Positions 43,766 to 48,077 of a stretch of DNA of 64,000 nucleotides are shown here, one piece after another; the stretch's first letter is position 1, and each line of letters begins with the position of its first letter. The position numbers and the translations under genes were made by a program. Below the pieces are notes generated by a model. That model saw only the letters and a list, made by a program, of their open reading frames with translations. It did no database searches and had not been told where the DNA came from. This stretch comes from Oligoflexia bacterium. Lineage in GTDB: Bacteria; Bdellovibrionota; UBA1018; CAIMNF01. The stretch is taken from assembly GCA_903845155.1 (NCBI GenBank), contig CAIMWN010000250.1, positions 2,550 through 66,549 of the forward strand. Reading direction: 5' to 3'.

Positions 43766-45001
43766 TTGAATAGTAAGCCTTCCCTCGCTACGGTAATACC
43801 CATGCACAGCCCAAAATGGAAAATCGGAGAAAGCGTACTCGATGTTCTCGTGGGTGGGGTTTCATTTTTGGATGCGAAGGAAGGATTCAAAGGGAGCTTT
43901 CCACACAATGAGGCCTCCGAAAAATTCTTGCTCGCCTATGGTTACGACTTTCACGATCCAATCGAAGTGGCTGAATTACAAGGTAATGTCCAAGAGGCTG
44001 TTCGTTTTATTCAGCGTTATTTTTTAAAGCCTCAAAATCCGGCAGGACTTCCTCTAGATATTCCTAAAAAGATTACCGAAATTTTTGACGTAAGAGACCT
44101 ACTTTCCTATGCGAGCTCTGAGCAAAACGAAGATCTGAGACAGTGGGCTTGTAGTGTTCTAAAGGTGGTTCACACCATTAGTCACGTGGATCGCGACATG
44201 CGTACCCATTACTTCGGTGATATTCAAAAACAAATTTTTGATCGTTTCTATCGTTACCTTCATCGTGATGACCTCGGGCAATTGTATCTAGGGCGTGGGG
44301 TTGCAGACCCTCTGCGCGTGGATTTGGCTGAATTTCAAATTAAACCTAAAAAGGCACGTGATAGTACCTTGATGAAGTTGCTTCATAAGGCAGGAAGCGT
44401 TGCTGAGGAATTGTTCGACACTGTTGGCATGCGTTTTATTACGAAGACCAGAGTGGATGCAATTAGGGTGATTCACTTTTTAGAGCAAAATAATGTAATT
44501 GTCGCTGCGAATATCAAACCAAGTCGTTCAAGAAATACCTTGATCGACACGATTTCATTTAAAGAGACGCTCGATAAAAACGAAAAACTGGAAACGCATC
44601 AAGAACCAGAGTTGTTGGATTTACTAGAGCTCGTTCCTCATCCACGCACGAAGCCAGGTGAGAATCCCTTTAGTTCAGAACATTATCGCGCGATTCAGTT
44701 TACCTGCCGACAGTTAGTGAAAATGAAAAATCCGCTGGGCGATCAGATTAGGGATTTGAAACAAGCATCGCGTGGACTGAAGCTCTCGCCCGATCTCAAT
44801 TCTGCAATTGAACGCATGGATGCACGACTGATTCAAAGAGTAGTGCGCTTTTTCTATCCCTTCGAAATTCAAGTCATGGACGAACTGAGCCACATCGACA
44901 ATGAAAAAGGAAGAAGTGCCCACACTGAATACAAAAAAGCGCAGCAACAGGCAGCAATGTTACGCGTGATGGGGCCTCTGGTGCGAGATCCCAAGGCATG
45001 A
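43766..45001 (+). CDS. Divergent RelA/SpoT-like (RSH/SAS-type) nucleotidyltransferase-fold protein
   Basis: 411 aa with a TTG start (GGGGAG 11-17 nt upstream). Four blocks are colinear with the (p)ppGpp-synthetase fold as I recall it from RelQ/RelP:
- IKPKKARDSTLMKLLHK (aa 192-208)
- DTVGMRFI (aa 218-225)
- EHYRAIQF (aa 305-312)
- FEIQVMDE...SAHTEYK (aa 366-390)

The N-terminal region of about 190 aa is unassigned. Confidence 0.5.
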   Translation: MNSKPSLATVIPMHSPKWKIGESVLDVLVGGVSFLDAKEGFKGSFPHNEASEKFLLAYGYDFHDPIEVAELQGNVQEAVRFIQRYFLKPQNPAGLPLDIPKKITEIFDVRDLLSYASSEQNEDLRQWACSVLKVVHTISHVDRDMRTHYFGDIQKQIFDRFYRYLHRDDLGQLYLGRGVADPLRVDLAEFQIKPKKARDSTLMKLLHKAGSVAEELFDTVGMRFITKTRVDAIRVIHFLEQNNVIVAANIKPSRSRNTLIDTISFKETLDKNEKLETHQEPELLDLLELVPHPRTKPGENPFSSEHYRAIQFTCRQLVKMKNPLGDQIRDLKQASRGLKLSPDLNSAIERMDARLIQRVVRFFYPFEIQVMDELSHIDNEKGRSAHTEYKKAQQQAAMLRVMGPLVRDPKA

Positions 45002-46182: not shown

Positions 46183-48077
46183 ACGTGGAACTTAAAGTAC
46201 GTGACGTGCATATTGACGTAGCAATTTTAGCGGGACCAAGAATCCAAACCTGGCCTACCCACGGCGTTCGTGTGCTTTCTCGATTGTGTGCCGATGCGGG
46301 ATTAAAAGTAGGTTGGTATGGTGGCGCAGGAATGCGGGTTCGCGGAGTCCTTCCTCTCGAAGGCAGTGGTGCATTGGTCATCGTCGAAGATGCCCAAAAA
46401 AGGCTTCATCGCATTCATGCAAAATCAGCGATTAAGGTTACGCCTCATTTGGATTTCCCTCTTCCTTTTTCTGGTTGGTATTCGCCAGGTTTGATTCCAG
46501 AGTCAACAGCAAGAAAACTGATGAAACAGGGAAGTTTGAATTGGCAGCCGGTGGTGGTCATTCTTGGTTCGGGTAATCAGGCTTTTCGTTTGGGATCTGA
46601 ACTCATTCAAACAAAGTCGGTCAATCGTGTGGTCTGTGTTGAATCCGTTTATGAACAAGTTCAAGCTTGGGAAGTGGAAAAACGTCGCTTCGAAGTGCTG
46701 GGTGGAAAAGTGATCTTTGGAAAGCTAAACTCACTCGTTCAGAAATCTCCTTTTTTATGGGAAATAAAAATTCAAGACAAGCAAGGGACGCGCATCATTG
46801 ATGCCGCGCGGGTAATTTCGGTGGGGCCCTTTCATGGTGATGAAGGGTTTCGTGAATACCCATCCGGTTCATTCTTGGTTGAATGGGAAAATACAGAAGT
46901 TCAACAAATTGCTGATGACGTTGAGCCTTTTTTGCTCGATGAACACCGCGCTGTTCTTTTGGCCGCAAGGCTCATTAAGGGATTGGCTCATCAATCACAA
47001 CTCGATAAAAGCGTGTGGGTAAGTAAGCAGAAATTAAAAGAATTAGAAACGATTCATGACAAACGTTTTTCTTGGACTTACGAAGGTAAGTGGTTAAGTG
47101 CGGACAGTAAAAAATTGCTTGGTGAATTTGCAGGCACACCTAAAACTCTCGTTCCTGAAAAAATGAAGGCCTCCATTGAATGTGTAGAAGCCATTGGGTG
47201 TCGAGTTTGCCAGAAGGCTTGCCCAGTCGATGCAATCAAGATTGAGCGAACCCAACAAGGCGGAACTTCTTCGTTTTTAATCGAAGATGCCTGCACTGGT
47301 TGCGGTTTTTGTTTGCAAGCGTGCCCCAGTCAAGTGCCCATCATGATCGAAGGTGACTCAACACAAAGTTTTACGCCGCTTGTTTTCCCCTATCGAGAGA
47401 GAGCGCCTCTTAAAAAGGGTGTTCGCGTGGGTCTCTTAAGCCGTAAAGGCGAAATGCTTGCCAATGCTAAAGTGCTCGATCAGTTTTTAAATGGCGATGT
47501 GCCTCTCTTTAAAGTGGAAGTTCCATCGCATTTAATTTGGGAAGCTCGCGGTTTGATTTCGATGACTCCTAAGGCGGAAGTGGAGCACGCGGATGATTTT
47601 TACCATGAAAAGGGTGAGCGGGTAGAAGTGCAAATTCAAGGCGATGTCAGACGCGTGCGCGAGGGGCAACTCATCTCGGTTGCACTCTTCGAAATTGGCA
47701 TGAGTAGACCCAATGATATTTTAATTTGTGAAGATGGAAGTTGTGGCCTTTGTCAGATTGAAACGGATGGCGTGAAAAAATTTGCCTGCCAATCAACAAT
47801 CCATCATGGAATGTCGATTCGCTTTACCCGCGACCATGAGCAATCATCTGAAATTTGTCCGTGTAGTTCCATCACCACCGATCAATTGCGCGCTACCTGT
47901 ATGTCGACTAAACCTGACAGTATTGAAGCGCTCGCACAAGTTTGTGAAGTGGGGCAAGGGCGTTGCCACGGGTTGCTCTGCAAAAAATCGTTCATCGAAG
48001 TGGCGGGTGAAGCTGGGATTGAGAGTGCGCGGTATGCAGATTGGGCGTTTCCGTGGACTGATTGGATGTTGAGCTAA
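46179..48077 (+). CDS. Multi-cluster iron-sulfur / NAD(P)-binding oxidoreductase-like protein
   Basis: 632 aa. GTGA overlap with the upstream gene.
- VVVILGSGNQAFRLG (GxGxxA).
- Two ferredoxin-type 4Fe-4S motifs: CVEAIGCRVCQKACP and CTGCGFCLQACP (aa 335-383).
- CEDGSCGLCQ...C, like the N-terminal 2Fe-2S of sarcosine-oxidase-alpha/HcnA.
- BFD-like CPC...CHGLLC (aa 560-601). Confidence 0.6.
   Translation: MNVELKVRDVHIDVAILAGPRIQTWPTHGVRVLSRLCADAGLKVGWYGGAGMRVRGVLPLEGSGALVIVEDAQKRLHRIHAKSAIKVTPHLDFPLPFSGWYSPGLIPESTARKLMKQGSLNWQPVVVILGSGNQAFRLGSELIQTKSVNRVVCVESVYEQVQAWEVEKRRFEVLGGKVIFGKLNSLVQKSPFLWEIKIQDKQGTRIIDAARVISVGPFHGDEGFREYPSGSFLVEWENTEVQQIADDVEPFLLDEHRAVLLAARLIKGLAHQSQLDKSVWVSKQKLKELETIHDKRFSWTYEGKWLSADSKKLLGEFAGTPKTLVPEKMKASIECVEAIGCRVCQKACPVDAIKIERTQQGGTSSFLIEDACTGCGFCLQACPSQVPIMIEGDSTQSFTPLVFPYRERAPLKKGVRVGLLSRKGEMLANAKVLDQFLNGDVPLFKVEVPSHLIWEARGLISMTPKAEVEHADDFYHEKGERVEVQIQGDVRRVREGQLISVALFEIGMSRPNDILICEDGSCGLCQIETDGVKKFACQSTIHHGMSIRFTRDHEQSSEICPCSSITTDQLRATCMSTKPDSIEALAQVCEVGQGRCHGLLCKKSFIEVAGEAGIESARYADWAFPWTDWMLS

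Follow-up and report, generated by a model that had tools for sequence, protein, structure and literature searches.

RelA/SpoT homologue (RSH) enzymes are central bacterial stress-signalling enzymes, and the inputs known for them are the ribosome, acyl carrier protein, small-molecule allostery and antitoxins. The locus described here raises the question of what a protein resembling the synthetases of this group may be doing in a tightly packed operon whose other two genes encode a candidate flavoprotein and a multi-cluster iron-sulphur (Fe-S) protein. The operon lies in a stretch of 64,000 nucleotides from an Oligoflexia bacterium (GenBank assembly GCA_903845155.1, contig CAIMWN010000250.1, positions 2,550 to 66,549 of the forward strand), referred to below as the window, in whose coordinates positions are given unless another locus is named. 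To judge from alignments and structure models, the first gene probably encodes a remote, active RSH-type nucleotidyltransferase, and in one Bdellovibrionota-type clade it is followed by the same two partner genes. The three genes of the window are the following.

43766..45001, plus strand: gene 1, 411 aa from TTG 43766 or 399 aa from ATG 43802, a TIGR04562/TIGR04552-family protein
44998..46182, plus strand: gene 2, 394 aa, ATG start, an orphan protein with a predicted DAO-family (GR2 flavoprotein) fold
46179..48077, plus strand: gene 3, 632 aa, GTG start, a multi-domain Fe-S protein

The overlaps of start and stop codons noted in a preliminary description of the window, which was made from the letters alone, are present as ATGA at 44998-45001 and GTGA at 46179-46182, each of 4 nt. 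The TTG start of gene 1 is unproven, since conservation among its homologues begins only at 'KWKIGES'; the database version of the protein, P0001, has 399 aa and starts at ATG 43802, and gene 1 residue numbers follow it throughout (numbering from the TTG start is 12 higher).

The conservation of this arrangement was examined in a genome scan with one genome per species, which gave 326 gene 1 relatives, and the best 80 of the 326 were inspected. In these 80 loci gene 1 was 47-70% identical and all assemblies were of Bdellovibrionota type, the taxon labels being taken from the titles of metagenome-assembled genomes. In 72 of the 80 loci, tblastn placed all three genes on one strand and in an unchanged order; the remaining loci were truncated by the contig or carried a very divergent gene 2/gene 3 pair immediately downstream. 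In the 72 genomes where three clear matches were obtained, both junctions were nearly always overlapping or less than 13 nt apart, the commonest values being -14, -4 and -17 nt between genes 1 and 2 and -4 nt between genes 2 and 3, and most loci showed overlaps of 4-20 nt. Such trios, downstream of recA-(cinA)-pgpA-thioesterase, were also the setting of the two gene 2 homologues that were the most distant ones detected. Gene 1 is the most conserved of the three, its median identity of 50% exceeding that of gene 3 (40%) and of gene 2 (34%). The arrangement is thus more than chance.

The limits of the trio are equally sharp. It was present, including the overlaps, in every locus with gene 1 at or above about 46% identity and enough downstream sequence (about 90 loci), and the approximately 75 more distant family members examined were all without genes 2 and 3. 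A metagenome scan of 80 loci, seeded on distant members of the gene 1 family, was divided in the same way: the 15 loci with gene 1 at 46% identity or more all had gene 2, plus gene 3 where the contig permitted; 28 loci at 40-45% were the same recA-pgpA locus without genes 2 and 3, the hydrolase usually abutting gene 1; and 37 loci at 30-39% had other contexts. In the trio genomes, this convergent alpha/beta-hydrolase comes after gene 3. The gene 2-gene 3 cassette is therefore a clean presence/absence polymorphism at one syntenic site. The direct abutment of the hydrolase on gene 1 was seen in about 20 loci (among them L102, L109, L116, L119, L123-L127 and L132). In the loci examined, gene 1 occurs without genes 2 and 3 but never the other way round; gene 1 is an autonomous family, to which the other two genes form an accessory cassette restricted to one Bdellovibrionota-type clade. 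The co-conservation and tight coupling of three genes on which the preliminary description had built its case accordingly hold within that clade and not across the family or the whole phylum.

Outside the clade, gene 1 relatives have diverse partners. Six contexts from a sister group of shorter proteins (found in Myxococcota and in some Alphaproteobacteria, Kiloniella for example) contained neither gene 2 nor gene 3; the neighbours varied, and the upstream genes overlapping gene 1 encoded a Ser/Thr kinase, a GNAT protein and a GerE regulator. Four long-form relatives at 35-38% identity likewise lacked the cassette: in one the hydrolase abutted gene 1, in another cysK overlapped it, in a third a NifS-like gene came next, and the fourth stood alone. 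In the cysK case, a deeper-branching version of the same recA-cinA-pgpA locus (L090:6001-8159), the gene 1 homologue overlaps by 4 nt (GTGA) a bona fide cysK (TIGR01139, 416 bits) that occupies the place of genes 2 and 3. In L092:1542-4040, L140:5938-8487 and L170:5911-8387, the next gene on the strand of a distant gene 1 homologue encodes a NifS/IscS-like cysteine desulfurase. In six loci (L156, L162, L167, L168, L169 and L171), the gene 1 homologue is followed after about 22-75 nt by a same-strand gene for a protein of about 460 aa, in which an N-terminal GYF_2 domain was the one domain recognised. Further same-strand partners at 30-39% identity were response-regulator-PP2C phosphatases (two), NifS-like proteins (two more), a methyltransferase and a DJ-1/PfpI protein. 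A Metallophos phosphoesterase (4-nt overlap) and response-regulator-SpoIIE/PP2C phosphatases were recorded at L143:3639-4706, L149:7540-8706 and L157:2765-3928, and it is possible that the phosphoesterase degrades the product of its gene 1 neighbour. A shared cysteine/Fe-S theme among the partners of gene 1, to which CysK, the NifS-like genes and the Fe-S protein had pointed, was considered and downgraded to a weak lead when wider sampling gave diverse partners.

Gene 1 itself is not an unnoticed protein: it belongs to a catalogued, yet uncharacterised, family. It is a full-length member of NCBIfam TIGR04562 (8e-108, 360.7 bits, cut-off 140) and TIGR04552 (4e-103, 345.4 bits, cut-off 125), both models being named merely 'TIGR04552 family protein', and the names of its 1478 homologues give only an uncharacterised family. 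The following parts can be distinguished.

43766..44317, plus strand: N-terminal all-helical domain of about 185 aa (AlphaFold2 (AF2) secondary structure, alignments)
44318..44998, plus strand: RSH synthetase-like catalytic core (sub-threshold Pfam match, Foldseek, hhalign)
44510..44542, plus strand: basic Ser-rich loop N-I-K-P-S-R-S-R-N-T-L, aa 237-247 in P0001, near-invariant

Searches of the Protein Data Bank (PDB) by sequence and by profile, with gene 1 or its family profile, matched no solved structure, so the link to RSH enzymes rests on Pfam, the ranking of fold matches and hhalign. The Pfam RelA_SpoT model (PF04607) gave 24.9 bits with gene 1, below the gathering score of 27 (E 2.6e-5), over aa 196-251 and profile positions 4-58 of 113 only; at the same time, it was matched by 39 of 40 aligned relatives at E<0.01, with a best value of 5.8e-7. 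The AF2 model (mean predicted local distance difference test, pLDDT, 76.9) consists of an N-terminal helical domain followed by an alpha/beta domain, and its top approximately 47 Foldseek matches in the PDB were exclusively RSH synthetases (RelP, RelQ, Rel, RelA and CapRel), although the scores themselves were weak: best E 0.014, probability 0.97, template modelling (TM) score on the target 0.43. The RSH fold proposed for gene 1 in the preliminary description is favoured by an RSH-only fold ranking with weak scores and by nearly all aligned relatives, and not by the Pfam score of the protein itself. A family profile search of 1.8 billion representative proteins did not reach canonical RSH enzymes; only 674 clusters were returned, which argues that the family is compact and does not merge with them.

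The residues lead in the same direction. When the gene 1 family alignment was compared by hhalign with four authentic Rel synthetase cores taken from the PDB (E 1e-4, probability 58%, 105 columns), gene 1 residues S188, D206, R211 and N288 were placed on RelSeq S247, D264, R269 and N306, residues Y295, E355 and Q357 on Y308, E323 and Q325, and the segment GRSAHxEYK (H374, Y377, K378) on the AHWxYK motif. In RelSeq, the catalytic role of D264 and E323 is established, and the residue set mapped here is used by RelA/SpoT-family synthetases for pyrophosphate transfer from ATP. The mapped catalytic and substrate-binding positions, looked for as the RSH patterns RxKxxxSxxxK (basic helix), DxxxxR, PKxN...Y, ExQ and AHxxYK, are invariant even between gene 1 family members about 30% identical. 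The RSH-like blocks quoted in the preliminary description (such as DTVGMRFI, EHYRAIQF and FEIQVMDE...HTEYK) were found at the DNA positions given for them, and most are invariant across the family. Departures from the RSH consensus were also found, EIQIRT being EIQVMD and His312 being Gln. The N-I-K-P-S-R-S-R-N-T-L loop is a family-specific insertion relative to canonical RSH cores and may bind substrate phosphates. Some sister-group gene 1 homologues overlap or adjoin Ser/Thr kinases.

The N-terminal domain matched no Pfam family and no PDB sequence; it carries the family-invariant His124 and His128, without an HD dyad, and no HD hydrolase signature or Pfam HD match was obtained for gene 1 or its aligned relatives. 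The description of gene 1 as a divergent RSH synthetase-like protein devoid of an HD hydrolase therefore stands. A helical insertion of about 45 aa was considered as a docking surface for the products of genes 2 and 3 and was rejected, since long-form relatives keep the insertion without these genes. One family member, P0351 (721 aa), has a C-terminal extension of about 330 aa with a hydrophobic segment followed by a beta-rich region, and is possibly a variant anchored in the membrane or the envelope.

Gene 2 is an orphan at the sequence level, and its fold is recognised from the model. Its 119 detectable homologues are all 'hypothetical' and come from Bdellovibrionota-type sources. Pfam DAO (PF01266) gave 18.3 bits with the protein, below the cut-off of 27.9, and matched 4 of 26 orthologues at E<0.01; PDB searches by sequence and profile gave nothing beyond the N-terminal Rossmann motif, and the NCBIfam hints were solely to the Rossmann segment of MnmC (E 0.008). 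The AF2 model (pLDDT 92.2), however, was matched over its full length by DAO-family structures in Foldseek (E 1e-15 to 1e-12, probability 1.00, TM 0.5-0.64, at 10-16% identity), including monomeric sarcosine oxidase (MSOX), heterotetrameric SoxB, glycine oxidase, iminodiacetate oxidase (IdaA), NikD, D-arginine dehydrogenase (DADH), flavin-containing opine dehydrogenase and Pyrococcus proline dehydrogenase beta, with 2gag_B, 3ad7_B, 7fgp and 1y56_B among the entries. The model thus allows the two-domain DAO/sarcosine-oxidase-beta fold to be predicted with confidence. One feature was delimited in the sequence.

45013..45102, plus strand: gene 2 beta-alpha-beta dinucleotide-binding motif (GTGVAP...ILNP), from sequence alignments

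The dinucleotide site is the conserved core of gene 2: in orthologues that are 16% identical, G11, N34-P35, F39, P81 and the C-terminal (D/E)G378 were retained, with G11, N34-P35 and (D/E)G378 called invariant down to that level. The third Gly of the motif GTGVAP is replaced by Pro (the sequence is GSGAAA in one sub-clade), and strand beta-2 ends in an invariant N-P, not in Glu. The dinucleotide-binding fingerprint of the preliminary description is accordingly present at the N-terminus and of Rossmann type, now placed in a DAO-family fold, but it reads GxGxxP and not the canonical GxGxxG. A divergent gene 2 orthologue (L052:5430-6545) has GDSIVS at the GxGxxG-type loop, its Fe-S partner keeping the four cluster motifs, which suggests from sequence that the dinucleotide site of gene 2 can be lost. 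Flavin binding by gene 2 is plausible on sequence grounds and not assured, because the third Gly is Pro or Ala and because of this GDSIVS orthologue.

The third protein is the best defined by its motifs, and the GxGxxA site, the two 4Fe-4S motifs, the 2Fe-2S-like motif and the BFD-like motif by which it had been called a multi-cluster Fe-S protein were all found as named. Its parts are listed below.

46179..46883, plus strand: Pyr_redox_2-like N-terminal region, first Gly loop degenerate (VAGPR)
46566-46583, plus strand: GxGxxA site GSGNQA, aa 130-135
47169..47336, plus strand: 2x[4Fe-4S] ferredoxin domain, aa 331-386 (Fer4 and PDB profile matches to 2e-18)
47337..47615, plus strand: middle domain of about 90 aa (aa 390-478), conserved 'LNRRGE.LG' and 'P.HL.WEAR'
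47616..47822, plus strand: NuoG/FdhA-type [2Fe-2S] domain (Fer2_4), aa 480-548, with C517, C522, C525 and C537 invariant
47850..47993, plus strand: BFD-like [2Fe-2S] domain, aa 558-605, C560-x-C...C596-x4-C601

All 16 Cys of these clusters are invariant in 26 orthologues, and the four cluster motifs persist at 26% identity. The ferredoxin domain (Fer4_7, 32.7 bits versus 27; Fer4, 31.4 bits versus 21.1) contains the motifs C335-x5-C-x2-C-x3-CP (C335-C348) and C372-x2-C-x2-C-x3-CP (C372-C382), whose 8 Cys are invariant, and Fer4 families matched 26 of 26 orthologues. Fer2_4 or Fer2_3 matches were obtained in 23-24 of the 26, and the C517-x4-C-x2-C...C537 domain gave PDB profile matches to the N-termini of FdhA and NuoG (7e-6 to 9e-6). 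Fer2_BFD was matched by 14 of 26 orthologues (best 5.9e-10), with weak matches of the region to Bfd and to the proline dehydrogenase alpha subunit 1y56_A, and C560, C562, C596 and C601 are invariant. No family or structure was matched by the middle domain, and no Pfam family by the N-terminal 330 aa. The order of motifs in the latter ('DVAIVAGPR' loop, '...PFPGW', 'ILGTGNRALRFGSELLE', 'V.C.ES') and a weak profile match (E 0.01) to the NADPH domain of 3ab1, a ferredoxin-NADP reductase of TrxR-like type, suggest that it is a decayed Pyr_redox_2-type module.

The explanation we favour, tentatively, is that gene 1 encodes a redox- or amine-gated RSH-type pyrophosphokinase acting in a complex with a DAO-like/Fe-S input module. 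The three proteins would be made in fixed proportion and would form one complex, in which the gene 1 protein would pyrophosphorylate a nucleotide acceptor, giving an alarmone-like messenger, and the HcnABC-like flavo-Fe-S module of genes 2 and 3 would serve as its dedicated input device. The switch that turns gene 1 on or off would be either the oxidation, at the DAO-like site, of a ligand of the amine or amino-acid type or else the redox state of the Fe-S chain, and the outcome would be nucleotide signalling tied to redox or amino-acid status. That genes 2 and 3 would serve gene 1, and not the reverse, is suggested by the asymmetry of their occurrence (gene 1 occurs alone), by the strict coupling within the clade and by the orphan status of the two partners. 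A messenger-making enzyme is favoured over a pathway enzyme because of the signalling-type neighbours of distant gene 1 relatives, namely a Ser/Thr kinase, response-regulator-PP2C phosphatases, GerE, the GYF_2 protein and the Metallophos phosphoesterase. We regard it as conceivable, if doubtful, that a clade of predatory bacteria makes an alarmone or a new nucleotide messenger by a non-canonical RSH enzyme gated directly by a flavo-Fe-S sensor complex. Under such direct gating, a nucleotide signal might arise from redox state or from amino-acid (amine) catabolic flux, with neither the ribosome nor uncharged tRNA doing the sensing, a consequence about which we are similarly hesitant.

Several observations weigh against the gated pyrophosphokinase. 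The RelA_SpoT score of gene 1 is below gathering and its structural match is weak (E 0.014, TM 0.43), and confidence in the gene 1 model is low just where the ATP-binding helix is predicted (pLDDT <50 for residues 184-206). The Gly motif of gene 2 is GxGxxP and is wholly degenerate (GDSIVS) in one orthologue, and the GxGxxA site of gene 3 is missing in one divergent sub-clade. The basic function of the family does not require genes 2 and 3, since they are missing throughout a sister lineage with gene 1 at the same recA-pgpA locus. Moreover, co-transcription alone is no proof of physical or regulatory coupling, and the activity of gene 1, the complex and its regulation are all inferred from sequence and models.

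It is also imaginable, though in our opinion unlikely, that the operon serves a metabolic pathway, in which gene 1 would activate a substrate with ATP, by pyrophosphorylation or nucleotidylation, and the flavo-Fe-S dehydrogenase would oxidise a C-N bond in that compound or in a precursor of it; the pathway would make or break down a metabolite such as a modified nucleotide, a cofactor or an opine-like compound. Genes 2 and 3 are indeed built like genuine catabolic amine dehydrogenases, tight translational coupling is typical of pathway operons, and some distant gene 1 relatives adjoin CysK (4-nt overlap) or NifS-like cysteine desulfurases (three loci); nevertheless, most gene 1 relatives stand alone or beside signalling proteins, and conservation around the trio extends to no transporter, no regulator and no other pathway gene. 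To our knowledge, the substrates of RSH-fold enzymes are limited to purine nucleotides or the tRNA 3' end, which also speaks against this role. The preliminary description had itself asked whether the trio might match a characterised pathway of the opine or sarcosine oxidase type; genes 2 and 3 do resemble this class in fold and domains, but gene 1 has no known role there, and for that reason the finding is not explained away by it.

Another reading, which the clade-wide data make quite unlikely, would see in genes 2 and 3 a diverged amine or amino-acid dehydrogenase inserted by chance downstream of gene 1, co-transcribed with it and functionally unlinked. The clean presence or absence of the pair between gene 1 and the flanking hydrolase would agree with such an insertion, and gene 1 works without the cassette in other lineages. 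Against this, genes 2 and 3 are orphan families seen beside gene 1 only, the order, strand and start/stop overlaps persist where gene 2 has drifted to 16-35% identity, and no loss or separation of the two genes was found within the clade in about 90 cases.

If gene 1 were a pseudo-enzyme, a catalytically inactive nucleotide-binding regulatory or scaffold subunit of the dehydrogenase, its changes at RSH consensus positions (EIQIRT to EIQVMD, His312 to Gln) and its low scores against RSH models would be easily understood. We consider this improbable, as no variation was found at about 30% identity in the catalytic Asp and Glu, the Arg, the stacking Tyr or the basic residues that bind ATP, and the family is widespread without any dehydrogenase partner.

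The toxic small alarmone synthetases (toxSAS) CapRel and FaRel2 pyrophosphorylate the tRNA 3' end, and MnmC is a DAO-family tRNA enzyme. An RNA-directed system could be modelled on them, gene 1 pyrophosphorylating the tRNA 3' end and gene 2 acting on a modified nucleoside in an MnmC-like manner, and it would agree with the presence of CapRel among the gene 1 fold matches and with the MnmC segment as the sole NCBIfam hint for gene 2. Such a role is decidedly improbable: the supporting matches are confined to generic motifs, no RNA-binding domain was detected, and the region is stable core genome and not a mobile or defence context, with no PADLOC family match.

A toxin-antitoxin or defence module, in which gene 1 would be a toxic small alarmone synthetase (SAS) neutralised by the downstream proteins, is extremely improbable, for although toxins encoded in operons of two or three genes are found among the SAS subfamilies (PMC7229694), the partners here are redox proteins of 394 and 632 aa, the putative toxin gene comes first and is alone in many genomes, recA/pgpA synteny is stable across the clade, the PADLOC defence-system hidden Markov models gave no match for the locus, and in an evolution experiment with Bdellovibrio a frameshift in a gene of the family rose to high frequency with no mention of partner loss (PMC9888234). 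Defence and toxin-antitoxin systems were rejected on the PADLOC negatives and on the occurrence of gene 1 alone at a conserved locus.

The surroundings of the operon add two features.

43699..43765, no strand: divergent intergenic region between the pgpA-like gene (minus strand, start codon at 43698) and gene 1
48075-48115 and 48168-48208, no strand: arms of a long inverted repeat, 41-nt arms and 52-nt loop, in the convergent intergenic region

Upstream of gene 1, the minus strand carries recA, two cell-wall-type hydrolase genes and the pgpA-like gene (39527-43698), and the gene downstream of gene 3 is in convergent orientation; the recA-(cinA)-pgpA-(thioesterase) block adjoining gene 1 is syntenic in most Bdellovibrionota-type loci examined. 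The operon promoter is presumably located in the 43699..43765 region, where a consensus scan gave no convincing sigma-70 site and an Rfam search gave no leader RNA or riboswitch. The Rfam matches obtained, MIR5565 and RAGATH-13, were far below gathering scores. Note that the promoter and terminator scans performed no better than on shuffled sequence. The hairpin by which the operon had been said to end is real, but it does not have the 38-bp arm at 48079 given for it: it begins at 48075, exactly at the gene 3 stop codon, and its 41-nt arms are 93% complementary (free energy -74 kcal/mol, z -12). It is single-copy in the window, was not found in 88 related loci, and has as its sole Rfam match the generic hairpin MIR5565 (32.7 bits versus 80). 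A repeated or conserved element is thereby ruled out, and its absence from the related loci means that the hairpin does not belong to the conserved system. Probably it is either a terminator acting in both directions or a palindromic element that was inserted here. Elsewhere in the window (50639-51193, minus strand), an open reading frame of 184 aa has a signal-peptide-like start and about 8 tandem Cys-rich repeats of 23 aa, with the unit 'ECHQ.D.RDYG[VI]SC[VA]YNPNS' (Tandem Repeats Finder: 69-nt period, 68-76% matches).

A lineage-wide coupled flavin/Fe-S partnership, if true, would be a new kind of RSH input or new chemistry for the fold. In any case, the conserved 'hypothetical' family TIGR04552/04562, which spans Bdellovibrionota and Myxococcota, phyla whose predatory and developmental cycles hinge on nutrient sensing, gains a testable biochemical hypothesis, and the natural presence/absence of genes 2 and 3 at a single locus provides a ready-made comparative experiment.

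Within the gene 1 family, members include Myxococcus xanthus MXAN_4858 and Bdellovibrio sp. NC01 DOE51_RS08710, and the members from Myxococcota and Alphaproteobacteria are, unlike gene 1, shorter and without a gene 2/3 partner. A transposon-sequencing phenotype like that of gliding genes has been mentioned in passing for MXAN_4858; the literature found on TIGR04552/TIGR04562 consists of such passing mentions, with no characterisation, and the RSH classification papers checked do not mention these lineages. No paper linking an alarmone synthetase with a flavin/Fe-S operon was found, in agreement with the preliminary description, which knew of no such system.

By the sub-threshold Pfam match, the Foldseek ranking and the profile alignment, gene 1 is akin in fold family to the RSH synthetases (RelQ/RelP and the SYN domains of Rel/RelA), and it shares equivalents of RelSeq R241/K243-type basic residues in addition to the mapped positions from S247 to Q325 and the AHWxYK motif. 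It is only about 10-15% identical to them and has no TGS or ACT domains; it adds the helical N-terminal domain of about 185 aa without an HD signature, the invariant KPSRSRN loop and the helical insertion of about 45 aa, and where RSH enzymes have EIQIRT its family has E(V/I)Q(V/I)xD. The toxSAS and secreted RSH toxins (FaRel, CapRel, PhRel and Tas1) are, like gene 1, divergent stand-alone synthetase domains in small operons, and the acceptors of toxSAS-type enzymes are not limited to GDP/GTP (PMC7229694). Unlike them, gene 1 keeps core-genome synteny beside recA/pgpA, occurs alone in related lineages and is partnered by two large redox proteins, not by small antitoxins or immunity proteins.

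The closest counterparts of genes 2 and 3 are the heteromeric amine dehydrogenases, and the likeness is one of fold and domain only, none of the NCBIfam/Pfam models of HcnA/B/C, SoxA/B, opine or proline dehydrogenases being matched by either protein. The parts list is shared with HcnABC and OoxAB/OdhABC (7fgp), the domain composition of HcnABC and OoxAB being well established, and with heterotetrameric sarcosine oxidase (2gag, 3ad7) and archaeal L-proline dehydrogenase (1y56): the gene 2 fold matches their beta subunits and gene 2 overlaps gene 3, whose putative Pyr_redox-like region and BFD-like [2Fe-2S] domain recall HcnB, OoxA and proline dehydrogenase alpha, and whose Fer2_4 [2Fe-2S] domain recalls HcnA or the gamma subunits. 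The present proteins differ in having the Fe-S modules fused in one chain, with a 2x[4Fe-4S] ferredoxin and the domain of about 90 aa in addition, and in their partly degenerate flavin and NAD(P) motifs, and the known dehydrogenase systems are without an RSH-like gene. Thus, the gene 1 family, as a catalogued entry, and the RSH fold were already known, and what is new at this locus is the lineage-fixed redox partner module.

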